Shown piece by piece: positions 26,801-49,925 of a stretch of DNA of 64,000 bases (the stretch's first letter is position 1; every line of letters begins with the position of its first letter). A model generated the notes under the pieces. The model ran no database searches and was not told the DNA's origin. It was given only the letters and a program-made list of their open reading frames with translations. Origin of the DNA: an uncultured Bacteroidales bacterium (GTDB lineage Bacteria > Bacteroidota > Bacteroidia > Bacteroidales > CAIXZF01); the NCBI GenBank assembly GCA_903923925.1, contig CAIXZF010000036.1:1093-65092 (forward strand). Reading direction: 5' to 3'. A program made the translations under genes and the position numbers.

Positions 26801-28923
26801 CTCAGGCAGGTATGTCAAACTATAGCTGGTGGGTTTCACCTGGTGGTATAATAACTGCTGGTGGCACATCTTCCAGCAATACAATCACTATTACCTGGGG
26901 ATTTAATGGTGCTGGATCTGTGAGGGTTAGCTATATTAATCAATTCGGATGCCAGGTGTCACAATCACCATATTACCCTGTAACCATTATTTCTGCTCCG
27001 GAACCAATTATTTCAGGTTTGAATACTATCTGTGCAGGAATCCAGAATGTTGTTTATTCAACGGCATCAGGAATGTCAAATTATGTATGGACAATTTCTG
27101 AAGGAGGAGTTGTTACTGCCGGAGGTACATCAACAAGTAATTCAGTTGCAATTACCTGGTTAACATCAGGTTCCAAAACTGTTAGTGTAAATTACGCCAA
27201 CTCACAGGGTTGTTCTGCAGCAAATCCTACTATTTTTCCTGTATATGTAAATCCAACTGTTCTACCTGTTATTTCAGGATCTTCGATGGTTTGTAAGGGT
27301 TTGTCGTCTAACACCTACTCAACTCAGGCTAATATGTCGAATTATGTATGGGGAATTTCACCGGGTGGAGTTATAATTGCAGGAGGGTCTGCTACTTCAA
27401 ATAGTTTGGTGATTGTTTGGACTACAAATGGACCACAATGGGTAAAAGTAAGTTTCATGAATGGAAATTGCCAGTCAGATGTAATTACTTACCCTGTTAT
27501 TGTAAATCCAAGACCTACTGCTAATGCAGGTTCTAATGTGATTATTAATCAGGGTGATTCAGCTCAGCTTAATGGTTCATCAACTGGTGGAACGCCTCCA
27601 TATAATTTCATGTGGTCGCCTGCAGCAACACTTTCTAATTCTCTGATCGCTAATCCATTGGCTAGTCCTGCATCGAGTACTGCATACCAGCTTCTGGTTA
27701 CAGATAATGCCGGATGTATGTCAACAGATGATATGGTGGTTGAAATTCAGTCAGCATATCCAGGAATTAACGGAGTAATCAGTTATGATAACACGAATTC
27801 TTCTTTGATAGACAGTGCTCTTGTAACTTTACGCGATGGTGCTGGCAGTGTAATTCAAACAACGCATTCTGATCTTAACGGCCATTATATTTTCACAGGA
27901 TTATTGCCTGGCGCTTATAATGTAAGTGCTACACCAAACTGGCCATGGGGCGGAGTTAATTCTGAGGATGCTCTGCGTATTATTTTCCATTACAATCATA
28001 TAATCCTTCTCACTGGTGTTAAGGAAAAAGCAGCGGATGTGAATGGCGATAATGCCATAAACTCAATTGATGCACTTATGGTTGTAAAAAGGTTTGTTAT
28101 GCAAATTCTTTCATTCCCTGTTGGTGACTGGGCTTGTGAAGCCAATCCAATCAATGTGAACACTACTATGGTAGTCAACAATTTCAAGGTACTGTGCTAT
28201 GGAGATGTAACTGGATCCTATAATCCGCCTTCAGTTAAACATGAACCAAGTGTTAGCCTTACTGTTGCTGATAACTTAGAAGTTAGTTCAGGAACTGAAT
28301 TTGAAGTACCGATTAAAGCTGATGGGACTTTATCAGTCGGAGCAATTTCTCTGGTTATTCATTTTCCAGCTAATCTGATGGAGATTAAAGGTGTTGAAAT
28401 GAATAATTCTGACAATCTGGTATACAATGTTCTCAATGGAGAAGTTAGGATTTCATGGTACAATACAAATCCTGAAGTTTTCACGAATAATACTATTCTT
28501 ACCTTAAAAATCAAGGCCGGAGATTTGTTTGGAATTACAAATGATATGCTGGAATTGAACCTCGATGGGGAAAGTGAAATAAGTAACAATCACTCCATTA
28601 CAATTCAAAATGTAAATCTTACCTATCCAAGACTTCTAATTGCATCAAACGATTATAGTCTGGCTAACTATCCGAATCCTTTCGATAAGGAAAGCGAAAT
28701 TATATATACTTTACCTGAGGATGGAACAGTAACTTTAAAGGTTTACAACCTCATGGGAGAACAAATAGCTTTGCTTGTTGATAATTCTGATCAGAAGGCA
28801 AGTACTTACAAAATCAGATTAGATGGTTCAAATATGGTTCCTGGTATTTACACCTGCATGATAGAAGTGACAGGCAAAAGCAGGAATTTTGTGAAGACTA
28901 CTAAAATGGTAATTTCACGGTAG
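17845..28923 (+). CDS. Giant (3692 aa) T9SS-secreted surface protein / putative adhesin. Contains two parallel beta-helix super-modules, Fn3/Ig-like arrays, a CarboxypepD_reg-like domain, dockerin-like and cohesin-like modules, and a Por/T9SS C-terminal sorting domain.
   Basis: Single uninterrupted ORF with a signal peptide MKKTILLLGSILLLVGMSYGQ. Beta-helix rungs repeat (NNTI.N, GNTIGN, NNKIYNI). The motif TDIDG..R....(D)(I/M)GADE(F/Y) occurs twice, near 20200-20295 and 22240-22297. Domain arrays are listed separately. The C-terminus ..LANYPNPFDKESEIIYTLPEDGTVTLKVYNLMGEQIALLV...GIYTCMIEV matches the T9SS CTD pattern. Confidence 0.95.
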   Translation: MKKTILLLGSILLLVGMSYGQITISGSIGANGTYTSLTNAAGAFAAINGTVQTGAIITISITADVTTEAGTNALNSGAWTSLSINPSGVRTISGAVTGHLIDFNGASNVTINGLNAGGNSLVLSNTAIGASSTVRFTNDASNNTITNCVLQGSSTSFGVIYFGTGTVTGNDNNVVSNCSIAPAGSNLPLNGVYSMGSSSIIDNSNITVSGNNIYDFFSSTLASNGMNINSFNSAWTITNNKLYQSFSKNYSTANTHCGIFITSGSGYTITGNTIGYASAGGTGTYVMTSTVATRFIGFNLAVGTTTATTSIQGNTVTAISLATSSGASTTYGILCGFNITSGNVNMGNVTPNIIGGASGTNLLSAVPTTTGGMVVGINTSSTGTILIQNNVIGGFYSSGTTAAVAGAVCGIDVSGVAASMTITGNTIGNTTANSMQAGTLTTTGSSFAAGIYLPSTSTTATITNNTIQNLTSYGTGASGYVRGIFTAASSAAIATLNINSNTIFNLTSNNTNASISNGNAGGVGINLGTGSVTSVSNNTIYNISLTNTGTGGYFAAGITLANATSPLVSNNKIYNITNASTSVTATAPGIAAGVIVRSATTAAIVVNNMISLGNGQTSNTAFIGIQCNHGSSPNPNDYIYYNTINIEGTAAAGAMPSFCFYRGDFSTTARTMTVDIRDNILSNTRSGGTGKHYAIANNYGASAVSAVGWSANASNYNVLNGNIATIGYWGADRTFSDWKTVSLSDANSLSAVSTPFVSTAAGNLHLNFGLTPTQIESGGVAIAGITTDIDGQTRPGPVPSVNGAGLFPDIGADEFDAVLLDLNPPVITYTPVPNTASTSVRTLVATITDVSGVASGVNKPVLYWKINSAATYTGPVSPISISGSSYTYTFGSGVVTGDFVSYFIVAQDISSNNNVGSYPAGATVTANPPLASAGPPAPSIYSILYLLCGSKTVGTVGADYPTITAALADLNSKELCGPLTLTLLDASYATETLPLVINANPGSSLTNTVKIKPAIGISTTISGASASGPVFKILNSNTTVDGSNTVGGTTKDIIVANTSATSPSVFVIGSTGTTPITGVTVKNCTIINGANTATAVTISDGIVAGTVGYFNNITIQNNSIQKAYIGIYAIANMAAGNGSGLMITGNDLSTSGANSIRLVGLYVQGVDGCTLSNNLIGNIANTLDAANLTGIWLATGTINANLTGNTISAISGTLTSPRGIAVSSAVSGSNVTISDNVISSMTSIISQVSYGIYFFSTTSGCIIQRNKISDIKNTNSGGYSAIAIALGSTLTDANTTVQNNFIWDVAGYGYASTTTDNGYGINILSGGGYRLYYNSVNLATDQTSTTGVPAALIINSLVTTANSLDIRNNIFSITSAIGTNRYSVLCNAANTVFSFLNYNDYYSTGPNLGYIGADRLDLAAWQTGTGKDANSVSGSPSYVSNTNLHILFSAVTPVSNSGNTIAGVTTDIDGDTRTSTPDMGADEYTYISSTVVDPTAVAANAIHSTKINLSFVPNVSTNDVVIVWSLTNTFTAPSGTPTVGGPLAGGIVLSIGTSSPVSHTGLTPLVPYYYMVYSYNGYFYSPGVAVTATPMVAPPAAFTATPVSSTQINLAYSLNAQSNNVVIATAPTSTFGAPVNGTPLVVNNTIVGGGTVIYVGPLAAFNHTSLTMNTAYYYAIWSYDAFNYYSNPGVTANATTQCILPSITGTAPGSRCGTGTVVLGATSSAGTINWYSTPTLGTSLGTGTSFTTPILSANTTYYVDANNSGCITSTRTAVLATVTEIPTITGTTAGSRCGTGTVVLNATSSAGTVYWYSVSTNGTSLGSGSPFTTPVISSNTTYWVDATLNGCTSGSRTSVLASVNALPANPLISSASTNLTCLSPSILLTASSTTPGVSYSWSSGGTLATTTVVNQGTYTVTISIPATGCYAAPSIVITKDPSLPTSPSIAAPTTILTCSTTSIILTASAIDNSPPANLTYSWSGGGTTATKSVSAPGTYFVTITDPDNGCSTNTSILISQNIAAPSSIVINSSAAALTCATTSILLTASATDNSGLSNLTYLWSGGGTGTTKTITTVGTYVITVTDPDNGCSNTGSKVITQSITGPTSAVINSPTTVITCSVPSIVLTASATDPYLTSNLTYLWSTTATTVAITVTIPGTYTVTITDPDNGCSSVASVLITQPIGLPAAPVSGGDQINCQVPIQTIVATATPPTGSSVVWFDAATLGNIVASPSLSALGTVNYWAASMFISTGCYSLTRTKVTLNIVLPVGTPTPISVSSGTEPSCQINTNSTTTTYGTTAIGSTGFNWTTNNPAAGTIGASTGVMAWTNGFSGTVQIQAIALGCNGPSSMVTRTVIVKPPIGQTSFFVGPVSTRCQGAGTETYSASAANTSNIVYAISPTGLNTINSATGLVTWNAAFSGTAVITATASGCYGPTTATHTVTVTAWTIPTFTAGVSSVCVPSAGNVYSTQTGMNNYSWTVSAGGTITSGSGSSSITVTWNTAGPQTVTVSYLNTYWCSAPTSGVYTVNAYSHPVSTLSGPASMCVGSAGNVYTTEAGMSAYSWVVSAGGTITAGGNSSSNTVTVTWTTAGSKTVSVNYSNANGCTTTSTAVVPVTVNALPVPTITGPNAMCIGTAGNVYTTQSGMSNYIWTVSPGGTVTAGGNSSSNTVTVTWNTTGAKTVTATYTNLNACVASSPASYAVTVNALPIPVITGPSTMCAGTTGSVYVTQAGMSNYSWSISGGGTIVAGGTSASNTVTVNWVTPGSQSVHVNYTNANACTGAVPAGYNVTVNSLPVPTLSGPAIVCSGAAANVYTTQAGMTAYSWIVSPGGTITSGGTSASNSVTVTWSSTGAKTVIVNYVNANSCTSANPAVFNVLVNTLPTPSITGPSSFCGPQAGNTYTTQPGMSNYSWNVSTGGTITAGGTASSNTITINWTTLGNHSLGVTYSDPNGCAAPVAANFNVSVNPVVVPSISGPYSVCATIPGNVYSTQAGMSNYSWWVSPGGIITAGGTSSSNTITITWGFNGAGSVRVSYINQFGCQVSQSPYYPVTIISAPEPIISGLNTICAGIQNVVYSTASGMSNYVWTISEGGVVTAGGTSTSNSVAITWLTSGSKTVSVNYANSQGCSAANPTIFPVYVNPTVLPVISGSSMVCKGLSSNTYSTQANMSNYVWGISPGGVIIAGGSATSNSLVIVWTTNGPQWVKVSFMNGNCQSDVITYPVIVNPRPTANAGSNVIINQGDSAQLNGSSTGGTPPYNFMWSPAATLSNSLIANPLASPASSTAYQLLVTDNAGCMSTDDMVVEIQSAYPGINGVISYDNTNSSLIDSALVTLRDGAGSVIQTTHSDLNGHYIFTGLLPGAYNVSATPNWPWGGVNSEDALRIIFHYNHIILLTGVKEKAADVNGDNAINSIDALMVVKRFVMQILSFPVGDWACEANPINVNTTMVVNNFKVLCYGDVTGSYNPPSVKHEPSVSLTVADNLEVSSGTEFEVPIKADGTLSVGAISLVIHFPANLMEIKGVEMNNSDNLVYNVLNGEVRISWYNTNPEVFTNNTILTLKIKAGDLFGITNDMLELNLDGESEISNNHSITIQNVNLTYPRLLIASNDYSLANYPNPFDKESEIIYTLPEDGTVTLKVYNLMGEQIALLVDNSDQKASTYKIRLDGSNMVPGIYTCMIEVTGKSRNFVKTTKMVISR
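22938..23418 (+). repeat. Two tandem ~80-aa Ig-like modules (ITGT..GSRCGTGTVVL.ATSSAGT..WYS....GTSLG.G..FTTP..S.NTTY.VDA...GC.S..RT.VLA.V)
   Basis: Direct reading of the translated protein. The period is about 240 bp. Confidence 0.7.
23437..24375 (+). repeat. Four tandem 78-aa modules (...LTC...SI.LTASA.D......LTY.WS.GGT...K.....GTY.VT(I/V)TDPDNGCS......I.Q)
   Basis: Period 234 bp, with copy starts near 23437, 23671, 23905 and 24139. Confidence 0.75.
25166..27513 (+). repeat. Nine tandem 87-aa (261-bp) Ig/PKD-like modules (P.P.I(T/S)GP...C.G..GNVY(T/S)TQ.GMSNY.W.VS.GGTITAGG.SSSNT(V/I)T(V/I).W...G.K.V.VNY.N.NGC....P....V.VN)
   Basis: Equivalent codons sit at 25427, 25687/25688, 25948, 26209, 26470, 26731, 26992 and 27253, an exact 261-bp register. 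Copies are diverged at DNA level. Confidence 0.85.
27945..28110 (+). other. Dockerin-like segment within the giant protein
   Basis: WGGVNSEDALRIIFHY....(linker)....ADVNGDNAINSIDALMVVKRFV. The second repeat is a canonical D.N.D..(I/V)N..D...(L/M)...(K/R)..(V/L) Ca-binding loop plus helix. The first is loop-degenerate. Confidence 0.55.
28243..28640 (+). other. Cohesin-like beta-sandwich module within the giant protein
   Basis: EPSVSLTVADNLEVSSGTEFEVPIKADGTLSVGAISLVIHFPANLMEIKGVEMNN...GEVRISWYN......NNTILTLKIKAG. The pattern resembles the three cohesin-like modules of the gene at 1-4478. Confidence 0.5.
28660..28920 (+). other. T9SS (Por) C-terminal sorting domain
   Basis: L.NYPNPF......I.Y.LPE.G.V.LKVYN..G.....LV........Y......S....GIY......... 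at the extreme C-terminus. Confidence 0.85.
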
Positions 28924-39488: not shown

Positions 39489-40895
39489 ATGGAAAATATT
39501 TTATACAAGCTCAGTTCAGGCGATACCATTTGCGCACTTGCGACTCCCGCAGGTATGGGAGCTATCGCCATGGTAAGGATCTCAGGGAAAGATTCTTTTT
39601 CTATTGTCGGCAATGTATTCAGTCCCTTCAGAAGCAGTAGTTCCCTTTTGGAAGCAAAAGGATATACTATTTTACATGGGAAAATCGGCAAAAATGAAAT
39701 TCTGGATGAAGTCCTGATTAATGTTTTCAGGGCTCCTCATTCCTATACCGGCGAAGATTTACTTGAGATAAGTTGTCATGGATCTGTTTTTATTCAGCGG
39801 AAACTGATTGAATTGCTGATAAGTGAGGGGGCACGACTTGCAGATCGGGGTGAGTTTACGCTGAGAGCATTTATGAATGGCAAGTTTGATTTATCGCAGG
39901 CAGAAGCTGTGGCTGATCTGATAATTTCTTCAACATCTACTTCTCATGAGCTTGCAATCCGTCAAATGCGGGGAGGGTATTCTTCGAAAATTGCCGGTTT
40001 ACGGAAGCAGTTGGTAGATTTTGCTTCCCTGCTTGAGCTTGAATTGGATTTTAGCGAGGAGGATGTTGAATTTGCCGATCGTACCCGATTTAGAGCACTT
40101 GTTGCTGAAATTTCGGAGGAGATCGCTTCATTGATGTCGTCGTTCAGGTTGGGAAATGTGCTTAAGTCGGGTATTCCAGTGGCAATAATAGGAAAACCTA
40201 ATGTTGGAAAATCAACCTTGTTAAATGCTTTATTGAACGAGGAAAAAGCGATTGTTTCTGAAATTCCGGGTACCACAAGAGATTATATTGAGGATGTGAT
40301 GGTGATTAGGGGAGTTTCCTTCCGGTTTATTGATACTGCAGGTTTAAGGCATTCAGAAGATACAATTGAGAGTTTGGGCATTGAGCGAACGTATGAACAG
40401 ATACGTCAGGCCAGAGTGATATTATATGTTTTTGACCTGGCAGAGACAGGCGTTGATGAGTTAAAGATTCTCATTGACGAATTAAAGAATAATGCAGAAG
40501 ATTCAGGTAAGGAGTTTATTCCTGTGGTAAATAAAACTGATCTGTTAGTAGAGTCTCCTCACCATTTTGCAGCTTTGTCGGAAATGGATGCAATTTATAT
40601 TTCTGCCAAGCGCAAAGAAAATATAAATCTTATCATAGAGCGGTTGTTGAATTCCGTTGATTTCGGCAAGTTAGAGGATAGTACAATAATATCGAGCAGC
40701 CGGCATTTTGATGCGCTTGAAAAATCCTCAGTTGCCATTTCAGCAGTTTCCGAAGGACTAAATACAGGTCTGCCCACCGATTTAATTGCTGCCGAATTAC
40801 GGCGGGCTCTTTATTTTCTCGGCGAGATAACAGGGGAGGTTACAACCAATGAACTTTTAGGAAACATTTTTAGCAGGTTCTGTATTGGAAAGTAA
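39489..40895 (+). CDS. mnmE: tRNA modification GTPase MnmE (TrmE)
   Basis: Has DTICALATP.G.GAIA.(V/I)R(I/L)SG, the G1 motif GKPNVGKSTLLN, DTAG, and the C-terminal FCIGK. The start was moved to the ATG at 39489 (MENILYKL). Confidence 0.93.
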   Translation: MENILYKLSSGDTICALATPAGMGAIAMVRISGKDSFSIVGNVFSPFRSSSSLLEAKGYTILHGKIGKNEILDEVLINVFRAPHSYTGEDLLEISCHGSVFIQRKLIELLISEGARLADRGEFTLRAFMNGKFDLSQAEAVADLIISSTSTSHELAIRQMRGGYSSKIAGLRKQLVDFASLLELELDFSEEDVEFADRTRFRALVAEISEEIASLMSSFRLGNVLKSGIPVAIIGKPNVGKSTLLNALLNEEKAIVSEIPGTTRDYIEDVMVIRGVSFRFIDTAGLRHSEDTIESLGIERTYEQIRQARVILYVFDLAETGVDELKILIDELKNNAEDSGKEFIPVVNKTDLLVESPHHFAALSEMDAIYISAKRKENINLIIERLLNSVDFGKLEDSTIISSSRHFDALEKSSVAISAVSEGLNTGLPTDLIAAELRRALYFLGEITGEVTTNELLGNIFSRFCIGK

Positions 40896-41090
40896 GCAGC
40901 CATAAAACAAGCGGGCAAGAAATTTTAAACAGTAACCAGCTGACTTTTAGTTTGAACTTAAGAGGGATGAATACAATTCTCTTAGGTCGCTGGTTGCGTC
41001 CTTAGAAAACGGAAGGGGATAAACAAGAAACCAAACAGAAAGAACGCAAACAGATAGGTTTTAAAACCAATAAGGAATAAGACCATATTA

Positions 41091-41513
41091 ATGAATGAAA
41101 TTGCCACTGATGAAATTACTTATTTGGATAAGAACGGAAAGGAAGCAAAAAAGCTTGTTACTGTTTTGGATAAAAAGGGCAAGCCAAAGAAAGTGGTACT
41201 TACTCCGGTTGACAAGCAATATAACAAAGAACAATTGGAACTTGCGGAACAAATCTGGCAAAAACGGAAAAATTATCTCAATAAACCTGAAATTTACACT
41301 GGTTACGAAAAGGAGCAGCTTAAAATTAAGAAACGAGGTGAACAGGATTTTGTTACCTATTTTAAAAAGTTGGCTGACAAAAGGAAAGCATCAAACCATG
41401 ATAACTGGGTTTCTGCTTATCAGTACCTCGATACTTTCACAAAGGGGAAATTGATGTTTTCAGAACTGACAGAAACATTTTGCAGTGATTTTCAGGAACA
41501 CCTGCTGTCTTAG
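41091..41513 (+). pseudogene. Truncated tyrosine-recombinase (phage-type integrase) gene. Only the N-terminal arm-binding/SAM-like region (140 aa) remains and the catalytic domain is missing.
   Basis: ..LELAEQIWQKRKNYLNKPEIYTGYEKEQLKIKKRGEQDFVTYFKKLADKRKASNHDNWVSAYQYLDTFTKGKLMFSELTETFCSDFQEHLL resembles the N-terminal SAM-like domain of Bacteroidota integrases. The ORF stops where the core-binding domain would continue. No R..H..R..Y catalytic region appears in any downstream frame. Confidence 0.55.
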
Positions 41514-41596
41514 CGATAAAATCAATTTTTTTCTATTACAGAATGGTCTGTCTTATGATCAGGGCTGAAAACTTTATCCTTGACAATTGTCTTTTT

Positions 41597-41797
41597 TTAC
41601 ACACTCTCTTTATTACCAATGCTTTGATCCACAAAAGGTTGAATAATGTAACTGATAAGGGGTATTATTAATACTATAATTACAGATATTATGAATAGTT
41701 GAATATCAGAATCATTAAGCTCCCACCCATAGACTAAGCAATAAGTGATTAAAAAAATAGTCAGAATTAATGCAGGGGCTCCAAAAACTACTGACAA
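41597..41797 (-). CDS. Hypothetical small membrane protein (66 aa, two hydrophobic helices). Weak call with a TTG start.
   Basis: This is the only ORF in a 730-bp very AT-rich spacer. No similarity was recognised. Confidence 0.2.
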   Translation of the reverse strand: MSVVFGAPALILTIFLITYCLVYGWELNDSDIQLFIISVIIVLIIPLISYIIQPFVDQSIGNKESV

Positions 41798-42219
41798 GGT
41801 TCTGAGTAATCATCTCCACTTCAAAGGGAAATAGCCCCCAAAAAACGTACTAATAAATTTGCTATACATATTAAATTAAATAGTATTAATAAGAGAAAAC
41901 ACTAAGTACGTTGCATTGTTGAATGCAATTATTATGCTAAGTGCTCCTCAATTTAAGCATCGCTTATATCTATTATCAATAGCTAGTACCTTATTATTAA
42001 ATATTAATAATATTTATATACAAAATTTGTTCAATAAATATGTAACTGTTTGTAAATCAATACAAGTAATTTTCCCTATAAAGGTAACCTTGTAAGTTGA
42101 GCAAGATTTGTTGTTTTGTGAAGATTATCTTTAATGGGAGAGTTTGAGGTTGATAGGTGCATAAAATATACTGATCCCCGAATTTTGATATAATGTGTCA
42201 TAAAAAGGATAAAAAGTTA

Positions 42220-42227
42220 TATATTTG
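42220..42227 (+). promoter_or_regulatory. Putative -7 box (TATATTTG) for the first HTH-hipA locus
   Basis: Exact TAnnTTTG match 21 nt upstream of the ATG at 42248. Confidence 0.4.
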
Positions 42228-42247
42228 TATCTTGAAAGACTCATTAT

Positions 42248-42577
42248 ATGAAATCATCAGCTGTGATATTACCCAAAAACCTGAAAGTTCTGGAAGAGCT
42301 GGGTTCGAATATTCAACTCGCTCGTTTACGCAGAAAATTTAGTTCGGAACAAGTTGCAGAAAGAGCTGGCATTGGCAGAAAGACAGTTTACAACATTGAG
42401 CAAGGCAGCCCTGCAGTTGCCATTGGGAGCTACCTGCAAGTATTGTTTGTGCTCGGATTAGAGAAGGACCTATCTATGGTAGCAGCATCTGATCCATTGG
42501 GTAGGAAATTGCAGGATGCTGGAATTACTACGGCTAAACGTGCTCCTAAAAGAACAGGCCATGTCAAAGAAAAATGA
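42248..42577 (+). CDS. hipB: XRE-family HTH protein, putative HipB-like antitoxin/repressor of the adjacent HipA
   Basis: 109 aa. The HTH is IQLARLRRKFSSEQVAERAGIGRKTVYNIEQG. Its 3' end overlaps the hipA start by 17 nt. Confidence 0.7.
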   Translation: MKSSAVILPKNLKVLEELGSNIQLARLRRKFSSEQVAERAGIGRKTVYNIEQGSPAVAIGSYLQVLFVLGLEKDLSMVAASDPLGRKLQDAGITTAKRAPKRTGHVKEK

Positions 42578-43829
42578 AGCAGCGATTTGGGTATTTGCTG
42601 ATTGGGAGCCATTAGAAGGTCCTCAACAGATGGGAATTCTTACACCTCAGCGTGTTAGGGGTAAAGAGATTTTTTCTTTTGAATACCATGAATCATGGCT
42701 TAATACGAATAATCCTATCTTGTATCTGGATCCGAACCTAGGACATTATAAAGGAAAACAATATTTACCGGAGGGCGAGCGCAATTTTGGGATGTTCCTG
42801 GATTCTGCACCAGATCGTTGGGGAAGATTATTGATGCGTCGCAGAGAAGCATGGCTGGCTAAATCAGAAAATCGCGATGAAAAAAACCTTTATGAAAGTG
42901 ATTACCTGCTAGGGGTTTTTGACGGCCATCGGATGGGAGGATTGCGGTTTAAGGTTGCGCTGGATGGTGAATTCATGAATAATCAAAAGAAAATGGCCAC
43001 ACCACCCTGGACATCACTGCGTGAATTGGAATATGCCAGTTTGCAATTGGAAAAAGAGGATGCCATCCAGGATCCGGAATACGCCAGATGGTTGAATATG
43101 TTGATTGATCCTGGCTCCTCACTGGGAGGTGCAAGGCCTAAAGCAAGCGTACTTGATGAAAAGGGCCAGCTTTGGATTGCAAAATTCCCAAGTGCAAAAG
43201 ACGATAAAGATACAGGTGCCTGGGAAATGGTATTGCATCAATTGGCTAAATCATGTGGTATTCAAGTGCCAGAGGCAAGACTGCTTCAATTTTCAGGAAA
43301 ACATCATACGTTTTTATCCAGGCGATTTGACAGGCAAAACAATCAGCGACGCATTCATTTTGCATCAGCCATGTCGTTACTGGGTTATCAGGACGGAACC
43401 GATTTTCATGATGGTATCAGTTATCTTGATTTAGTTGCTTTTATCATTCAGCAGGGGGCATCTGTAAAAGCAGATTTAGAACAATTGTGGCGAAGAGTGG
43501 TTTTCAATATTTTGGTTTCAAATACTGACGACCATTTACGCAATCATGGATTTATTCTAGCAAGAAACGGCTGGCAGTTATCACCGGCCTACGACATGAA
43601 CCCGAATGAAAGGGGGAGTGGCCTAACATTAAATATATCGGAGCACAACAATGAGCAGGATATTTCATTAGCATTGGATACAGCAAAGCATTACAAGTTA
43701 ACTAAGCATGAAGCGGAATTAATTGTAAAAGAAATACAGAAAGAAATTTCCAACTGGCGTGCTGTTGCATCCAAAAATGGAATTGGCAACAGTGAAATTG
43801 AACAGACCAAGCGTGCATTCCGATATTAG
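42561..43829 (+). CDS. hipA: HipA-family serine/threonine kinase toxin (full-length, N-terminal plus core kinase domains)
   Basis: The ATG at 42561 was chosen (MSKKNEAAIWVFADW..). Has a HipA N-domain (..FSFEYHESWL......L.P.L........F..FLDSAPDRWGR.L), the loop GSSLGGARPKA and the catalytic motif NTDDHLRNHGF. Confidence 0.85.
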   Translation: MSKKNEAAIWVFADWEPLEGPQQMGILTPQRVRGKEIFSFEYHESWLNTNNPILYLDPNLGHYKGKQYLPEGERNFGMFLDSAPDRWGRLLMRRREAWLAKSENRDEKNLYESDYLLGVFDGHRMGGLRFKVALDGEFMNNQKKMATPPWTSLRELEYASLQLEKEDAIQDPEYARWLNMLIDPGSSLGGARPKASVLDEKGQLWIAKFPSAKDDKDTGAWEMVLHQLAKSCGIQVPEARLLQFSGKHHTFLSRRFDRQNNQRRIHFASAMSLLGYQDGTDFHDGISYLDLVAFIIQQGASVKADLEQLWRRVVFNILVSNTDDHLRNHGFILARNGWQLSPAYDMNPNERGSGLTLNISEHNNEQDISLALDTAKHYKLTKHEAELIVKEIQKEISNWRAVASKNGIGNSEIEQTKRAFRY

Positions 43830-43882
43830 ACATTTCAGGAAGAATAACAGATTGATTCAATTTCATGCAAAGAGCATATTTG

Positions 43883-43978
43883 TATACCCGAAGGGGTATA
43901 ATTTAATCAATTTTGAATAAATAGTACCCGAAGGGGTATAGTTATTGATAAAATTATTATTTTTGCACCCTAAAGGGT
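43883..43978. promoter_or_regulatory. Three phased palindromic sites (ACCC-N4-GGGT core), putative operators of the second Hip locus, overlapping its -7 box (TATTTTTG, 43958-43965)
   Basis: O1 is TATACCC-GAAG-GGGTATA at 43883-43900. O2 is TACCC-GAAG-GGGTA at 43925-43938. O3 is ACCC-TAAA-GGGT at 43967-43978. Centres are 40 and 41 bp apart. O3 lies between the -7 box and the ATG at 43986. Confidence 0.6.
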
Positions 43979-43985
43979 ATAAAAA

Positions 43986-44195
43986 ATGGATCTGGTAAGT
44001 TTTGTAAAAGAGAAACGAAAGTCAGTGAATCTGACACAGCCCGAGCTGGCAGAAAAAGCAGGAGTGGGCCTGCGTTTCGTAAGAGAATTGGAACAAGGCA
44101 AGCAAAGTTTGCGATTGGATAAAGTAAACCAGGTGCTTCAACTGTTCGGGTATGAAGTAGGTGCGGTATTAATGAAACCAACAACAGATTCGTAA
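43986..44195 (+). CDS. hipB: Small HTH protein (y4mF/HipB-type), first gene of a tripartite HipBST-like locus
   Basis: 69 aa. FVKEKRKSVNLTQPELAEKAGVGLRFVRELEQGK.SLRLDKVNQVL..FG. Confidence 0.8.
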   Translation: MDLVSFVKEKRKSVNLTQPELAEKAGVGLRFVRELEQGKQSLRLDKVNQVLQLFGYEVGAVLMKPTTDS

Positions 44196-44215
44196 TTACT
44201 TATTAAACTGAAAGC

Positions 44216-44545
44216 ATGCCAAAAGCAGTTGTGAAAATTAACGGAACAATGGCTGGGTGGCTCGTACAGGATGAACACGGTTATCATTTTGTGTATGATA
44301 AAGGATATATATCCCAACAGAATGTCCGGCCAGTTAGTTTAACACTACCAGTGCAGGAAGCTGCTTTTACATCAAAGGTGTTGTTCCCATTTTTTGATGG
44401 ATTGATCCCTGAGGGATGGCTTCTGGATATTGCAGAAAGGAACTGGAAAATAAATTCCAGAGACCGCATGGGATTACTGCTGGCTTGTTGCAAAGATTGC
44501 ATCGGGGCAGTAAGTGTGGAAGAAATAAAGGAGGATAACCAATGA
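44216..44545 (+). CDS. hipS: HipS-like protein (stand-alone HipA N-terminal subdomain)
   Basis: 109 aa. ..V.ING...G.L.......Y.F.YD.......PVSLTLPV........V.FPFFDGLIPEGW........W.I...D...LL....KDCIGAVSV matches the couple_hipA/HipA_N pattern. It has a 4-nt ATGA overlap with the kinase gene. Confidence 0.75.
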   Translation: MPKAVVKINGTMAGWLVQDEHGYHFVYDKGYISQQNVRPVSLTLPVQEAAFTSKVLFPFFDGLIPEGWLLDIAERNWKINSRDRMGLLLACCKDCIGAVSVEEIKEDNQ

Positions 44546-45483
44546 GCAGATGTTTATATTGTTATCAAACTTTAGAGAACAAGGCGGAGGATTTTCACGT
44601 TTCCTGCTCAAAGAAAATATTTGGCCATACCAGTCCTCCTGCATTACTTTATTCAGAACAAGACCTGGAATCTCTTGCCAGGGAAGTAATCCAAAGCCAG
44701 ACTGCTGTCACAGGAGTGCAGGCAAAATTGTCATTGCACATCACCGGGACACGAAATGATTATGAGGGGCGAAGATTTACAATTGTAGGCTTATGGGGAG
44801 GTTATATATTAAAGCCACCTGCTGCTACGTACCCTCAATTGCCTGAGGTAGAAGATTTGACTATGCATTTGGCCCAATTGTCAAAGATCAGAACAGCACC
44901 ACATAGTTTAATTCGATTGGCATCAGGGAATCTGGCCTATATAACCAAACGGGTTGACCGTACAAAAAATGGCAAGTTGGCCATGGAAGATATGTGTCAG
45001 TTAACGGAACGGCTTACAGAAGACAAATACCATGGCAGTTATGAGCAAATAGCGAAAGCCATTCTGAAGTATTCTTCTATACCCGGTTTAGATGTGGTAA
45101 ATTTTTTCGAGTTAGTATTGTTCTCATTCTTAACCGGTAATGCAGATATGCATTTGAAGAATTTCTCTTTACTGGAGCAGCCGGGTTTGGGAATGGCATT
45201 GTCGCCTGCCTATGACCTTGTAAACACTGCTTTGATAAATCCTTCAGATGAGGAAGAACTGGCGGTGAATCTGAACGGTAAAAAGAAGAAAATAAAGAGG
45301 CAGGATTTTATTGCATCGATGAACACGCTTAAGTTGGAGGAAAAACAACAACAGAACATTTTTAATAAAATTGTAAAAGGAATGCCCCAATGGTTGGCGT
45401 TTATAGACAACAGCTTTTTAGGCAAGGATTTAAAAGAAGGGTACAAGCAAATAGTTACAGAACGATTTGAAAGATTAAAATGA
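44542..45483 (+). CDS. hipT: HipT-like kinase (HipA core kinase domain lacking the N-subdomain)
   Basis: 313 aa. The Gly-rich loop is TAVTGVQAKLSL. Also has YILKP and the catalytic motif GNADMHLKNFS followed by LSPAYDL. It is preceded by an unusual strong SD, AAGGAGGA (44528-44535). Confidence 0.8.
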   Translation: MSRCLYCYQTLENKAEDFHVSCSKKIFGHTSPPALLYSEQDLESLAREVIQSQTAVTGVQAKLSLHITGTRNDYEGRRFTIVGLWGGYILKPPAATYPQLPEVEDLTMHLAQLSKIRTAPHSLIRLASGNLAYITKRVDRTKNGKLAMEDMCQLTERLTEDKYHGSYEQIAKAILKYSSIPGLDVVNFFELVLFSFLTGNADMHLKNFSLLEQPGLGMALSPAYDLVNTALINPSDEEELAVNLNGKKKKIKRQDFIASMNTLKLEEKQQQNIFNKIVKGMPQWLAFIDNSFLGKDLKEGYKQIVTERFERLK

Positions 45484-45709
45484 TTAACTGTACCTTATTT
45501 GTACCTCAAATCCATAACTACCTGTAAATCAATTCAAGTTACTTTTTGTATTGGGTAGTAAACGCCGATAATCAACACACCCAGAAAGTGGCAAAATTAC
45601 CCGGTGGAGAATACCTTGATATGTATCTATATAATCCTCCCAGGGATGAGATGGAGAAACATAAGCAAGAGTGCAGTATCGTTATCGTATATTTACGTAT
45701 CATATCGTA

Positions 45710-45943
45710 TCAATTGATGTAAATTATGGCAAGGATAAATACAGTAAACTTGGATTTGAGTTTTGAATTAATCAATAAATTGAGTTTTATTGATCGCTTT
45801 AGCGGTGAGTGGTCAAATATTGACAAGCTCGAATCCTCACCCATCTCATCCATTTTCGCTACTTGTTGCAGCATAGACCTTATATCTTCCTGGTAACTTC
45901 TGATTTTGGGTGACTCCGGAACGTAAAGTTCGCCGAATTTCAT
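45710..45943 (-). CDS. Hypothetical 77-aa ORF 6 nt downstream of the minus-strand hipT-like gene. Doubtful, since an antisense 56-aa ORF at 45726-45896 (+) competes with it.
   Basis: The ATG at 45943 follows the hipT-like stop (45950-45952) after gtctgc. The N-half is charged and the tail is hydrophobic (FTVFILAIIYIN). No family was recognised. Confidence 0.2.
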   Translation of the reverse strand: MKFGELYVPESPKIRSYQEDIRSMLQQVAKMDEMGEDSSLSIFDHSPLKRSIKLNLLINSKLKSKFTVFILAIIYIN

Positions 45944-45949
45944 GCAGAC

Positions 45950-46879
45950 TTATAACTCTATGATTTTCAGGCGGCTTTCAAGTAGTTTTTTGTATTTTCC
46001 TTTTAATTCATCTGAAAGAAAACAAGCGGAAAGCAGGGTAAACCATGTTTCTTTTGCCTGGGATAATGCCTGCAAACTACTTTCCACCACTTTATTCGTG
46101 AGGCCGCAGCGTTCTTTCCCGAAATAGTCAACGAATAGCTTTCTGGTAAGTTTTCTTTTTTTGCCGGCAAGAGTTAATGCTATTTCTTCGGCTCCTCCCT
46201 TCAGTACAATGGTAGAATTCAGCAGGTCGTATGCAGGAGAAAGTTCTATTTTATCACCCTCCCTGATTACGGAATAATTTTTCAGATGCATATCTTCATT
46301 TCCTATAAGGAAATTAAAAAGCAGCAGCCTGAACAATTTTGCTTTTTCGATTACAGGAAAAGTGCAGTATTCGTCCAGTAACAGCAGCAGATTTTCCATG
46401 GAGTAATTGTATTTTGTATCCCTTGTAAGTTTTGCAAGCTGCGCGAAATCTTCAACGGGGATTTTATCCTTATGTCCTTGCCTGTCGAAACGTTTGATAA
46501 AATAAGTAAGTGAATTATCTTTCGACCAAATCATTCCGTGCAGTGGAACTTTAATGCCGGCAGCTTTAGCCATCCGCATGCATACATCTTCATTTTCGGG
46601 GAGCTGAGGGTATATGTGATGCTGTGGTTTCAGAATGTACTTCCCTCCGGAATCAACCAGATCAAACCTTGATTCTTTAATATTCAGGAGGGCACTAAGT
46701 TTTGGCTGGACACCCTGAATAGATATTTTTGTGGCTCTGGCCATTGCTTCTGCTCTTTGCTCTGCTGCTGTATAAGACAATAACTCCAGGTTATCCAGAT
46801 TCTGAGATAAAAGTTTAAGCCCTTTTTCACTGTATAGGAAATCTCCGCAGGGTTCATATGTAAGAGGACATGTTTTCAT
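45950..46879 (-). CDS. hipT: HipT-like kinase (second copy, divergent paralogue)
   Basis: 309 aa. The Gly-rich loop is KISIQGVQPKLSAL. Also has YILKP and the catalytic motif GNEDMHLKNYS followed by LSPAYDL. Confidence 0.8.
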   Translation of the reverse strand: MKTCPLTYEPCGDFLYSEKGLKLLSQNLDNLELLSYTAAEQRAEAMARATKISIQGVQPKLSALLNIKESRFDLVDSGGKYILKPQHHIYPQLPENEDVCMRMAKAAGIKVPLHGMIWSKDNSLTYFIKRFDRQGHKDKIPVEDFAQLAKLTRDTKYNYSMENLLLLLDEYCTFPVIEKAKLFRLLLFNFLIGNEDMHLKNYSVIREGDKIELSPAYDLLNSTIVLKGGAEEIALTLAGKKRKLTRKLFVDYFGKERCGLTNKVVESSLQALSQAKETWFTLLSACFLSDELKGKYKKLLESRLKIIEL

Positions 46880-47190
46880 AAAATAATCTCTTTCACGCTT
46901 ACTGCCCCAACTGTGTCATTACCAACTAGTATTAACTGCGAAAAGAAATCATTTCTGTCGACTTTACCCTGTTTCAATAAACCCTCTAATTGGTGTCCTT
47001 CAGGCAAAAGACCATCAAAGAAAGGAGGGAAATGATCAAATGAATAAAATTTCTGATCAAGGGGCATGGTGAGTGAAACGGGAAGGCCGTTATATCCATC
47101 ATTGTATTCAAAGGCGTATTCCTTTGCAAAAACTCTTTCAGAAAGCAAGCCGGCATCTTTACCGCAGACAAATACTTTAGCTGTTCTCAT
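46876..47190 (-). CDS. hipS: HipS-like protein (second copy)
   Basis: 104 aa. ..V.V.G...G.L.......Y.FEY.......PVSLTMPL........FPPFFDGLLPEG........G.VDRNDFFSQL...G.DTVGAVSV. It has an ATGA overlap with the kinase gene. Confidence 0.75.
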   Translation of the reverse strand: MRTAKVFVCGKDAGLLSERVFAKEYAFEYNDGYNGLPVSLTMPLDQKFYSFDHFPPFFDGLLPEGHQLEGLLKQGKVDRNDFFSQLILVGNDTVGAVSVKEIIL

Positions 47191-47416
47191 CTTTGATCAT
47201 TATTTGATTCATAAGATGGCTTTGCAACACAACTTTAATATTCAGTACTTTGAATATCTTTCTTAACGTATCAAGTTGAACTGTTTCCTTTCCTTTTTCA
47301 ATATCAAAAACAACCGTTTTCCCTATACCAGCCATTTCCGCCAGCTGCAGCTGACTGAGACCAGCGGCCTTCCGGTGCTTTTTAATTATTTTTGAAAGAA
47401 CTTCTGACGAAAGCAT
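47177..47416 (-). CDS. hipB: Small HTH protein (HipB-type), first gene of the second tripartite locus
   Basis: 79 aa. IIKKHRKAAGLSQLQLAEMAGIGKTVVFDIEKGKETVQLDTLRKIFKVL. It overlaps the hipS-like start by 14 nt. Confidence 0.8.
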   Translation of the reverse strand: MLSSEVLSKIIKKHRKAAGLSQLQLAEMAGIGKTVVFDIEKGKETVQLDTLRKIFKVLNIKVVLQSHLMNQIMIKDENS

Positions 47417-47418
47417 TA

Positions 47419-47557
47419 TTGCCGTTTTAGCGGCAAATATAAGCTAATTTGTAATAATAGTCAAGATAATTCATAAAATTACTGCCATGACAGTAATTTG
47501 TATCAAATTTAAGTTCATTTTAAGTAAATAGAAGAGTATTTACCGTTTTAACAGTAA
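47419..47557. promoter_or_regulatory. Three phased palindromic sites (TTRCYG-N6-CRGYAA), putative operators of the minus-strand Hip locus. Site A overlaps its -7 box (TATATTTG on minus, 47434-47441).
   Basis: A is TTGCCG-ttttag-CGGCAA at 47419-47436. B is (A)TTACTG-ccatga-CAGTAA(T) at 47478-47497. C is TTACCG-ttttaa-CAGTAA at 47540-47557, with one arm mismatch. Centres are 60 and 61 bp apart. Confidence 0.55.
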
Positions 47558-47567
47558 TATTTGGTAT

Positions 47568-49925
47568 TTAAACACTGTCAGGGAAAGTCAATTCAACAAA
47601 TGCACCACCATCAGAATTATTACCAAGGTTAATATTGCCATTATGTGCATTCAAAATAAGTGAACACAAATATAAACCTAAGCCTGCATTCGCATCAAGG
47701 TGTATCAATACATTAAAAGGAATTATAGGCGATTGCAATAGTTTCTCTGTAAAACCTGTTCCCTGATCTTTGATAGTGCAATTAACCATGTTGTTAGATT
47801 TCGAAAGTTCAATGCAGATTTTTCCATTTGCGGGCGAATGCCTGATTGCATTATCAATAATATTATGAAGACATTTCTTAAAATAGGATTCATCCACCGA
47901 AACAAGGAAATCATTGGAGATAGATATTACTTCAACTTCCAGATTCTTCTTCTTAAGATCAGAAAAATAACTACTGCTTACAGTTGTTGCTAATTTTTTC
48001 AGATCAATAACAGTTTTTCTAAGTAAACCTTCATTCTTTGTTCTTAATTCAGAGATATCCAAAGTTTTTAGAGAGAAAACTTCAAGCCGGCGAACAGAAA
48101 TGTCAAGGATTTCAACCATACGTGTGGTTAATTCAGGACTATCAGAGGTTTTGAGAATATCAACAGGGCCTAGAATACCATTTAGAGGAGTTCTTATCTC
48201 ATGGTGTATTATCTGAAGGAATTCATTTTTTGCCTGGTCCAGGACTTCAAGTTCTTCTTTAGCTTTAAGTAACTTGATATTTGCCTCCCGGAGCTCGGCA
48301 GTCCGGGCAGCAACCTCGGATTCAAGAAGTTTATTGTACCGCTTTTTTAACATGAGTGAACGGTATATCAATAATGCAATCAATAGCATTAGTATAAATC
48401 CTATCGAAATTGATGCAATAGCAATTCGCTGATGTTTAATTCTCAGGGTAATTATTTCAATCTCTTTGGCGTTTATTTCCTTTGTTCTGCTGGCTTCTAT
48501 GTCGGAAATTTTCCGCTGATTTTCGAGGTTAAAAACGGAATCCTGGAGTATATTAGAAGAATCGGAATACAGGAATGCATTTTTCCAGTCCTTAGTAAAC
48601 TGACTGGCTCTTGCAATATTTAAGTAGGCTTCTATCATAGGATCGAGCTCACCGAGTTCCTTCCCGATAACAATTGCCATTTTGTTATATTTTATTGAAT
48701 TGTTGAGATACTCCTTTTCATTAATGAATTTTTTAGATTTAGATTCAGGAACTGATATGGATGAGGAATCTGTAACCATTCTCATGTATAATTCACCCAT
48801 ACCTTTCAGAGCATAAAGGATACTGCTTTTTGCGCCAATTTCTATACTTAATTCATAGGCACTTTTGTAATATAACAAAGATTGGTTGAAGTCGTTTAAA
48901 TGCGAATACACTCTTGCAATACTATTTAATGCTGACGACATGCCGAATTTTTGCTTGATCTGTTTGAATTGGTCAAGGGATTTCAGATGACATTCAAGAG
49001 CCTTTTTGTAGTCGTGCTGATTTGTGTATACGTTGCCAAGATTTGTATAGGTACTCGCTGTTGCACGTTTGTCGCCTATACTTTCTGATATTTTAAGCGA
49101 AATAATATAATTTTCCAGCGCTTTTGAATAATAAAGTTGCCTGAAATAAATTACTCCGATATTTCCGTAAGTACTTGCGCTGCCTTTTTTGTTACCGGTT
49201 TTTTCGTATATTTTGAGTGATTTAAAATAATATTCCAGCGCTTTTGGATAATCAGGCAAGCGGGAGTAGATATTTCCAATTCCGACGAGAGCATTTCCCT
49301 GTACTTTCAGATTGTTGCTTTTTTCAGCTAGCTGAAGCGATTTAAATTGATATTCAAGTGATTTTGGGTACTCCCCCTGAACATAATAAAGGTTGCCAAT
49401 ATTCCCATAAACGCTAGCACATCTGCCTTTGTCGTTGATTTCTTCAAGTGTTTTATACGCTTTGTTGTAGTATTTGAGGGTTTGAGCAAAATCAGATTTG
49501 CTGAAATAGATGTTGCCAATGTTAAGATAGATTGTTGCTACCGTTGATTTGTCATTAATTTTTTCACTGATTTTTAAAGCCTTATTAAAGTTTTCAAGTG
49601 CTTTTTCTATGTCTGATTTCACATAACAGCACACCCCGATTCCCAGGAAAGATTTCGCAATGCCTTTTTTAAAGTTTAACTTTTCGGCAATTTTCTTCCC
49701 TTGAAGCGCATAATCTATTCCAGCCATCGGGTCTATACTCTGAAATTCCCATGCAAGGTCATTCAATAGATTTACTTTAGTTGTGTCTTCTTTAGTATGA
49801 GATGTCAGAGATACAAGCATTGAATCAACTTTGTCCTGCCCTTGTTTTTGTGCATTACTGGCAGGAAGATTCAATATGAACAAAAGAATGCCGACAAGCA
49901 GAATATGAAGCGTTGGCTTATTCAT
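47568..49925 (-). CDS. TPR-repeat sensor histidine kinase
   Basis: 785 aa. Has a signal peptide and about 8 TPR units (..A....G.IY....(D/Y)Y.KALEY(Y)..(S)L.I.E..). These are followed by a TM helix (IASISIGFILMLLIALLIY), a coiled coil, the H-box HHEIRTPLNGI and HATPase N/G boxes. Confidence 0.9.
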   Translation of the reverse strand: MNKPTLHILLVGILLFILNLPASNAQKQGQDKVDSMLVSLTSHTKEDTTKVNLLNDLAWEFQSIDPMAGIDYALQGKKIAEKLNFKKGIAKSFLGIGVCCYVKSDIEKALENFNKALKISEKINDKSTVATIYLNIGNIYFSKSDFAQTLKYYNKAYKTLEEINDKGRCASVYGNIGNLYYVQGEYPKSLEYQFKSLQLAEKSNNLKVQGNALVGIGNIYSRLPDYPKALEYYFKSLKIYEKTGNKKGSASTYGNIGVIYFRQLYYSKALENYIISLKISESIGDKRATASTYTNLGNVYTNQHDYKKALECHLKSLDQFKQIKQKFGMSSALNSIARVYSHLNDFNQSLLYYKSAYELSIEIGAKSSILYALKGMGELYMRMVTDSSSISVPESKSKKFINEKEYLNNSIKYNKMAIVIGKELGELDPMIEAYLNIARASQFTKDWKNAFLYSDSSNILQDSVFNLENQRKISDIEASRTKEINAKEIEIITLRIKHQRIAIASISIGFILMLLIALLIYRSLMLKKRYNKLLESEVAARTAELREANIKLLKAKEELEVLDQAKNEFLQIIHHEIRTPLNGILGPVDILKTSDSPELTTRMVEILDISVRRLEVFSLKTLDISELRTKNEGLLRKTVIDLKKLATTVSSSYFSDLKKKNLEVEVISISNDFLVSVDESYFKKCLHNIIDNAIRHSPANGKICIELSKSNNMVNCTIKDQGTGFTEKLLQSPIIPFNVLIHLDANAGLGLYLCSLILNAHNGNINLGNNSDGGAFVELTFPDSV

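Follow-up and report, generated by a model that had tools for sequence, protein, structure and literature searches.

What is the block of DNA that follows mnmE in an uncultured Bacteroidota organism, and why does it hold three loci for kinases of the HipA family? The block occupies positions 40896-47567 of a 64,000-nt stretch of contig CAIXZF010000036.1 (the window, by whose numbering all positions are given) and carries an integrase fragment, a bipartite helix-turn-helix (HTH)/HipA pair (locus (i)) and two tripartite HTH/HipS/HipT sets (loci (ii) and (iii)). We consider it probable that this block is a graveyard of mobile-element cargo at an mnmE insertion hotspot, with Hip toxin–antitoxin (TA) operons among the remains. 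In our model, which builds on the gene content, domains, catalytic motifs, operator repeats, attachment (att) sites, deletion scars and sequence identity across several metagenomes that we describe below, small integrative elements of Bacteroidota would insert into the last ~18 nt of mnmE, intact ones combining cargo with a tyrosine integrase and a zinc-finger/HTH_17 gene. An element of this kind, at 40878-45561, would have been stripped of its first gene, of most of its integrase and probably of further cargo, and would have kept its right attachment site (attR) and two TA operons, the HipBA-like locus (i) and the HipBST locus (ii). To the right of attR would lie older accessory DNA, comprising locus (iii), which is convergent with locus (ii), and a fic gene from whose interior 1.4 kb has been deleted.

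The genes themselves are well defined. A first-pass annotation of this DNA had listed nine ORFs (open reading frames) in the block, all of which were recovered with their coordinates, sizes and overlaps (Table 1), and searches with hidden Markov models bore out every domain assigned to them (HTH_3/couple_hipB, Couple_hipA and HipA_C). Its reading of one bipartite locus and two split triads beside an integrase remnant held in the available tests, as did, within that core reading and by sequence tests only, the proposal that these genes were acquired horizontally. The catalytic D-x-H-x-(K/R)-N motif is, as claimed, conserved in all three kinases (GNADMHLKN, GNEDMHLKN and SNTDDHLRN), with SPAYD after each, and the ATP-binding lysine and the Gly-rich loop are likewise kept in all three. 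The host's MnmE has its best matches, at ~61% identity, in Lentimicrobium and in metagenome-assembled genomes (MAGs) of Bacteroidales among 185,579 GTDB species genomes; synteny downstream of mnmE is absent in the nearest species genomes, in which MnmE identity is ~60%.

Comparison of 80 Bacteroidota mnmE neighbourhoods, one per species locus (L001-L080), points to the 3' end of this gene as a recurrent insertion site. An integrase of the same family as the fragment in the block, with the architecture Arm-DNA-bind_5, SAM_5 and catalytic domain, stands 160-1160 nt after mnmE and on the same strand in 20 of the 80 loci (25% occupancy); ahead of it there is usually a zinc-finger/HTH_17 gene, whose start lies 220-260 nt past the mnmE stop codon. 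In six of the 80, the 3'-terminal 18-mer of the locus's own mnmE is repeated with 0-3 mismatches 1.3-7.4 kb downstream; an upstream repeat was seen in one of the 80 and is weak. No RNA gene was found in the block by Rfam or tRNA scanning, indicating that the insertion target is not a tRNA. In Gammaproteobacteria, Salmonella genomic island 1 (SGI1), along with related islands, integrates at the 3' end of trmE, which is the same gene as mnmE (PMC8409611). The elements described here resemble SGI1 in being tyrosine-integrase elements that use the same gene's 3' terminus and duplicate the gene end, and in being mobilisable, as suggested by a relaxase gene in one of them (L072); they differ from it in phylum, integrase family and cargo, and we regard the parallel as functional and claim no sequence relationship. 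The literature that we searched contained no published family of mnmE-targeting elements in Bacteroidota, which does not prove that none has been described. Two of the neighbourhoods merit separate mention. A Crocinitomix MAG (L026, 11347-18816) contains a 7.4-kb mnmE element bounded by an 18-nt direct repeat, and at its right end a pair of genes for an AAA_21 protein (an AbiEii-like ATPase) and an HNH protein, which from their sequences look like a defence module. In L016 (1382-8446), the mnmE 3' end is found again 7 kb downstream, as an exact copy with at least 45 nt of similarity, and this copy encloses opposite-strand, metabolic-looking genes without an integrase, an arrangement unlike the other att pairs.

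Hip and other toxin genes recur as cargo of related elements. The intact mnmE element of a Labilibaculum (L072) carries the integrase and the HTH_17 gene followed by a HipBST triad and the relaxase; a Cyclobacteriaceae locus (L080) has an HTH and HipA1 pair, 47% identical, directly after mnmE and without an integrase; and in two remnants (L032 and L059) a Fic gene alone is left beside attR. A separate integrase island from another metagenome (L089, 1-11300) combines a HipBST triad, and a HipBA pair that shares 80% identity with locus (i), with two AAA_14/DUF4143 ATPases and with DUF6088 and AbiEii; it seems to be a recurring pattern that Hip modules are stacked with other TA systems. The survival of toxin-type genes beyond the remainder of these elements would fit a role in addiction or stabilisation, and we suggest that the Hip loci, most economically, serve to stabilise the island, with phage defence possible.

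We find it rather unlikely that abortive infection against phages is the primary function of the three kinase systems, in which case the block would be a defence island with no role in island stabilisation or persistence. This explanation draws on weak matches of the kinases and HipS2 to the PADLOC candidate system PDC-M03, on defence-looking cargo elsewhere (the AAA_21 and HNH genes in sister elements at the hotspot, AbiEii in the separate island with the 80%-identical HipA1, and type I restriction–modification and Abi_2 genes in one locus of the neighbourhood comparison) and on reviews that cite TA systems as defence modules. However, the PDC-M03 matches are partial and far from family level (E 1e-9 to 1e-11, best 1.7e-11) and HipS3 has none, a phage-defence phenotype of HipBST is not reported in the HipBST literature examined, and addiction accounts at least equally well for toxin genes being the last survivors of decayed elements.

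The extent of the element is read from its att sites. The last 18 nt of mnmE form the attL core, and a degenerate attR begins 6 nt past the HipT2 stop codon, its arms separated by 38 nt from a core that is identical to the mnmE terminus at 15 of 18 positions. In L026 and L032, the same arm motif, GTACC-N4-TTGTACC, stands 38-41 nt before the downstream core copy, and in L026 and L070 the same GTACC repeats lie ~140 nt inside attL. Across the 80 loci, the composite pattern of arms and core is found at the attR of L026 and L032 and, apart from the window, nowhere else; the arm motif is unique in the window, where 0.08 occurrences are expected by chance. Spacing and orientation place the element to the left of the site. 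With attR at this position, the element would span 40878-45561 and comprise the integrase fragment and loci (i) and (ii), leaving locus (iii) outside. In this reading, the single island of the first-pass annotation gives way to an element and a separate right-hand part. No second att core with three or fewer mismatches is found to the right of locus (iii).

The left part of the element is strongly eroded. Homology of the integrase fragment is limited to 41181-41510, which corresponds to residues 48-153 of intact, mnmE-adjacent integrases of 380-386 aa (61-65% identity, tblastn); Phage_int_SAM_5 is its sole Pfam domain (E 5.7e-8), and the arm-binding N-terminus and the catalytic domain are missing. 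The integrase is thus truncated, as proposed, but it is not the N-terminal 140 aa of the enzyme, since only residues ~31-140 of the ORF align. The element also has no zinc-finger gene, and the lack of this gene, of integrase parts and of attL arms is consistent with decay, making this a remnant and not a functional element. The AT-rich spacer that follows, whose estimated length of about 730 bp proved accurate, is variable between strains: another contig (L085) is identical to the window as far as 42019, beyond which it runs into a different AT-rich ORF (L085 12532-12721), the metagenome contig ERZ1426853 has a GFO_IDH_MocA/transketolase cluster directly left of HTH1, and several assemblies break within the spacer. 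The attR arm region has a degenerate copy that starts 5 nt from the variable junction 42019/42020 and scores higher than any other direct repeat of the block (23; the highest score among 25 Markov resamples was 19). Judged by its sequence, this copy may represent the right-hand end of another element in tandem, and together the repeat and the variable junction would point to tandem elements or to a larger variant.

A second scar lies in the gap between the convergent loci (ii) and (iii). Here 45675-45833 shows 87% nucleotide identity to the start of fic in L097, a gene for a 489-aa Fic protein (78% amino acid identity over residues 1-37), and 45832-45925 shows 84% nucleotide identity to the L097 DNA just past the fic stop codon. 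The start of fic is therefore joined to post-stop DNA, and ~1.38 kb of fic has been deleted. Neither of these two gap fragments had a tblastn match in plasmids or in the 80 loci, and both were identified by an exhaustive search of representative genomes. The small ORFs of the spacer and of the convergent gap have no Pfam match. A 77-aa ORF at 45710-45943 on the minus strand was considered as a fourth gene of locus (iii) and rejected, as it is the conserved post-fic DNA read on the other strand.

Loci (ii) and (iii) share one design. Both have the co-oriented order hipB-hipS-hipT, with a gap of 20 nt between HipB2 and HipS2 and an ATGA overlap of HipS2 with HipT2 in locus (ii), and overlaps of 14 nt (HipB3/HipS3) and 4 nt (HipS3/HipT3) in locus (iii). 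HipS2 and HipS3 are Couple_hipA proteins end to end and align with the whole of Legionella pneumophila HipS (HipS_Lp) and with residues 1-103 of Escherichia coli HipA, and HipT2 and HipT3 consist of HipA_C alone, without N-subdomain 1. The two triads are divergent paralogues, at 38% identity for the HipS pair (estimated by eye at one third in the first-pass annotation), 34% for HipT and 34% for the HTH proteins.

The tripartite HipBST system was described in E. coli O127:H6 (Vang Nielsen 2019, PMC6581861; Baerentsen 2023, PMC10627512; PDB 7ab3-5), and a second one in L. pneumophila is encoded by lpg2368-2370 (PDB 7vkb, 7wcf and 8ezr; Lin 2023, PMC10653801; Zhen 2022, PMC9325769). The HipBST_Lp subclade is distinct from the E. 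coli one and widespread in the FCB (Fibrobacteres–Chlorobi–Bacteroidetes) superphylum, including Bacteroidota (PMC10653801). E. coli O127:H6 had been named as the model for the split loci; the HipBST design stands, and by E-value the Legionella system is much the nearer relative. In PDB searches, HipT3 matches HipT_Lp over its full length with E 5e-105 and 55.6% identity, against E 8e-22 for E. coli HipT (HipT_Ec), and HipT2 matches HipT_Lp with E 2.3e-48 and 37% identity, against E 5e-16 for HipT_Ec. Likewise, HipS3 matches HipS_Lp with E 7.5e-33 and 58.8% identity and E. coli HipS with E 4.5e-8, the corresponding values for HipS2 being E 7e-17 and 40% for HipS_Lp and E 2.7e-10 for E. coli HipS. 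These sequence comparisons support a placement of both triads with the L. pneumophila subclade and not with E. coli O127.

The two triads differ at sites to which structural work has drawn attention. HipT3 has the Gly-rich loop S53-I-Q55 (with K84, D196 and D218) and HipS3 has His66-Gln67 at the wedge position, where Legionella has Ile65-Met66; triad (iii) thus shows both traits of the HipBST_Lp type system, the S-Psi-Q loop and a HipS without the wedge Trp. Triad (ii) shows neither, as HipT2 has the loop A55-V-T57 (with K91, D202 and D225), in which the second site alone is phosphorylatable, and Trp68 of HipS2 aligns with the essential Trp65 of E. coli HipS; these traits are properties of the type system and not formal criteria of membership. 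Triad (ii) accordingly differs from L. pneumophila HipBST in combining an E. coli-type Trp wedge with an A-V-T loop. With E. coli O127 HipBST, the triads have in common the tripartite split of HipA, a HipS presumed to be the antitoxin, a HipB presumed to be the repressor and, in HipS2, the Trp, but they are far more distant from it, and its S-I-S double-serine loop occurs in neither HipT of the window.

Upstream of each triad stand three evenly spaced operator-like palindromes, the proximal one at the promoter. The half-sites of the two sets are unrelated, in line with the earlier remark that the operators differ, and this supports transcriptional insulation of the triads; their insulation at the protein level is a reasonable inference from the sequences. 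The Bacteroidota -7 promoter consensus is TAnnTTTG, and -7 boxes stand 17-20 nt before the start codon in all three operons of the block; that of locus (i) belongs to a motif found just 66 times in 128 kb of strand. The operator stretch of locus (iii) (47419-47558) is overlapped by TTGACT-17-TATATT, which is the region's best sigma-70-like match. As a separate observation, 26 nt of the spacer (41657-41682) are 77% identical to a part of the locus (ii) promoter (43931-43956; AAGGGGTAT...) in which an operator half-site lies; this may be chance or the relic of another HipBST promoter.

In Legionella, HipS is the antitoxin and HipB a repressor that binds three evenly spaced operators, O1-O3 (PMC10653801). 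By analogy with the homologues characterised in L. pneumophila and E. coli, HipS, which corresponds to a HipA N-subdomain that has become separate, would bind HipT and hold its Gly-rich loop ejected and the kinase inactive, and HipB would repress the operon through the three evenly spaced palindromes that overlap the promoter. Gene order, the three palindromes with the proximal one at the promoter and, in triad (iii), the S-Psi-Q loop and the HipS without a Trp wedge are all as in L. pneumophila. In contrast, the operator sequences are different, with starts 40-41 or 60-61 nt apart here and inter-operator gaps of 53 bp there, two divergent copies lie convergently in one locus here, and L. pneumophila HipBST occupies a genus-conserved chromosomal site whereas the present triads lie in decayed mobile-element DNA. 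The target of HipT in E. coli-type systems is an aminoacyl-tRNA synthetase (TrpS). The Legionella kinase acts on neither TrpS nor GltX nor any validated candidate (PMC10653801), and the failure of TrpS and GltX to rescue the Legionella-type kinase means that the TrpS target is not transferable to the triads.

Locus (i), with a HipA_C kinase and an upstream HTH gene in one operon, has the make-up of a bipartite HipBA system and would be a classical HipBA pair in which HTH1 acts as both repressor and antitoxin. The two genes overlap by 17 nt, and the identical HipA1 start has been called independently in public assemblies. HipA1 has the key residues S187, K208, D323 and D345 and more than 100 homologues at 72-83% identity, some annotated as Chitinophagaceae or Sediminibacterium, with an overlapping upstream gene for a 106-aa HTH protein in every homologue context examined. 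Such matches, for a host whose MnmE has none above ~61%, speak for horizontal spread of HipA1. Among solved Hip kinases, the core alone finds matches (best E 6e-11), and a profile search of the PDB likewise matched the kinase core and not the N-terminal domain. The N-terminus gives a weak Couple_hipA match (E 0.011 when residues 1-190 are scanned alone) and contains FLDSAPDRWG, which resembles the HipS motif FFxGLLPEG; hmmsearch with a family profile and hhalign against HipS sequences detected no likeness to HipS. The AlphaFold (AF2) model is poor (mean predicted local distance difference test score, pLDDT, of 56) and rests on a shallow alignment (72-100% identity), so that the best Foldseek matches of this model, full-length HipA structures with 450-490 aligned columns and a root-mean-square deviation of 11-14 A, are suggestive at most. 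No operator was called for locus (i), where a loose 16-nt inverted repeat around the promoter was all that was found. A divergent Bacteroides uniformis pair near a HipBST_Lp homologue, HipBA_Bu (WP_149924064.1), served as a seed in the survey of Lin et al. (PMC10653801). Locus (i) shares with it a divergent HipA kinase, an overlapping upstream HTH gene and the proximity of a HipBST_Lp-type triad in Bacteroidota, and its position beside locus (ii) looks like the HipBA_Bu situation.

Several points weigh against our model. Two further 15/18 matches to the core occur elsewhere in the window, so that, with a core of this quality, the case for attR depends on the arm motif beside it; arm repeats are lacking at attL; and neither an empty site nor an excised form was seen, as exact-protein look-ups with HipA1, MnmE and the histidine kinase led only to contigs that share this arrangement or that end within the spacer. 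In L097, a HipT2-like gene (66% identity) lies upstream of an intact fic with no att site between them, an arrangement in which locus (ii) and fic could have arrived together. For locus (i), a HipS-like subdomain could not be demonstrated in the N-terminal domain of HipA1, and to our knowledge a Bacteroides-type HipBA has never been tested experimentally. More generally, we infer every functional step, including toxicity, neutralising pairings, the kinase target and the biological role, from homologues and anatomy.

The core matches and the L097 arrangement would also fit a reading in which all 6.7 kb, integrase through locus (iii), arrived in one event as a single island and 45490-45561 is no att site, and the nine genes are indeed contiguous and 100% identical in several metagenome contigs. 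We nevertheless consider this improbable, as the arms followed after 38-41 nt by a core are found in the 80 loci solely at the attR of L026 and L032, the arm motif occurs once in the window, and the spacing and orientation of 45490-45561 are those of an attR with its element on the left. That the loci are inert relics, with kinases or antitoxins as non-functional as the integrase and fic, seems very improbable: the surrounding element is heavily eroded and the A-V-T loop of HipT2 lacks the first phosphorylatable serine, but the nine ORFs run full length, the catalytic residues are all conserved, no damage is seen in start contexts, promoters or operator triplets, and Psi-Psi-T Gly-rich loops are a recognised natural class of HipT.

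Returning to the model of a decayed element beside older accessory DNA, what is new here is the anatomy of the island and the family of mnmE integrative elements in Bacteroidota, which is defined from this comparison. The TA side adds little: earlier literature covers the co-location of Hip systems, how abundant they are in Bacteroidota and the design with three operators, HipBST of the Legionella type and HipBA of the Bacteroides type are known to be common and close together in this phylum, and several Hip kinases per genome are known as well. However, two divergent HipBST systems in one cell differ exactly at the residues that structural work has tied to neutralisation and autophosphorylation, and could serve for tests of insulation and in the search for the target of the Legionella-type kinase. 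The mnmE hotspot with its recognisable attR could be used by genome annotators and in surveys of mobile elements in Bacteroidota. It is tempting to speculate, and we put this forward as a tentative proposal that may well prove wrong, that the mnmE terminus is a phylum-wide bacterial attachment site (attB) of Bacteroidota at which a single family of small, mobilisable integrative elements serially integrate and decay, with toxin modules (HipBA, HipBST and Fic) as the last survivors because they resist deletion, and that the two triads are insulated by different neutralisation logic (Trp wedge and A-V-T versus His-Gln and S-I-Q). If so, the mnmE elements would be the functional analogue of SGI1 at trmE in Gammaproteobacteria, and the triads would form a natural pair with which HipS-HipT specificity could be mapped and perhaps the Legionella-type target found.

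Table 1 Features of the block that follows mnmE, in window positions.
Feature	Position	Strand	Details
attL core	40878-40895	+	TTCTGTATTGGAAAGTAA; last 18 nt of mnmE including the stop codon
Integrase fragment	41091-41513	+	140-aa ORF
AT-rich spacer	41514-42247		734 bp, 28.5% GC; strain-variable junction 42019/42020
Degenerate copy of attR arm region	42025-42073	+	49 nt, 73% identical to 45497-45545
-7 box, locus (i)	42220-42227	+	TATATTTG; 20 nt upstream of HTH1; read from sequence
HTH1, HipB-like partner of HipA1	42248-42577	+	109 aa; HTH_31/HTH_3, couple_hipB E 2.5e-11
HipA1 kinase	42561-43829	+	422 aa; HipA_C E 2.3e-54, residues 186-398
Operator-like palindromes, locus (ii)	43884-99, 43924-39, 43965-80	+	ATACCC-N4-GGGTAT; 3 copies, 16 bp, starts 40 and 41 nt apart
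-7 box, locus (ii)	43958-65	+	TATTTTTG
HipB2 (HTH2)	43986-44195	+	69 aa; TIGR03070 couple_hipB 81.5 bits, cut-off 71.65
HipS2	44216-44545	+	109 aa; Couple_hipA E 1e-26
SD-like motif (SD, Shine-Dalgarno)	44528-44535	+	AAGGAGGA; in the 3' end of HipS2, 7 nt ahead of the ATG of HipT2
HipT2 core kinase	44542-45483	+	313 aa; HipA_C E 2e-45
attR, degenerate	45490-45561	+	arms GTACCTTATTTGTACC 45490-45505, core TTTTGTATTGGGTAGTAA 45544-45561
fic deletion scar	45675-45925	+	45675-45833 promoter and first 37 codons; 45832-45925 post-stop DNA
HipT3 core kinase	45950-46879	-	309 aa; HipA_C E 1e-49
HipS3	46876-47190	-	104 aa; Couple_hipA E 6e-21
HipB3 (HTH3)	47177-47416	-	79 aa; HTH_3 E 2.9e-13, couple_hipB 67 bits
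-7 box, locus (iii)	47434-41	-	
Operator-like palindromes, locus (iii)	47419-36, 47479-97, 47540-58	-	TTRCYG-N6-CRGYAA; 3 copies, 18 bp, 60-61 nt apart

Two compositional arguments for a foreign origin had been advanced. The island genes had been described as GC-richer than their surroundings, but the shift is weak: their GC of 0.37-0.44 and third-position GC (GC3) of 0.33-0.40 fall inside the spread of the other long genes of the window (GC mean 0.388 +/- 0.023; GC3 0.334 +/- 0.032, range 0.25-0.44), mnmE and sucD match them in GC richness, and we rejected a GC or codon shift as evidence of foreign origin. The strong SD-like motif before HipT2 is indeed atypical for the host, with no such motif upstream of any of the 27 other long genes of the window; as AAGGAGGA lies within HipS2 codons, it could be incidental.

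Elsewhere in the window, a single ORF of 3,692 aa at 17845-28923 on the plus strand has the lowest GC3 of the window (0.25), and the tetratricopeptide repeat (TPR) region of the histidine kinase gene contains a 51-nt internal repeat (49082-49132 versus 49202-49252, 82% identical) that probably reflects TPR units.

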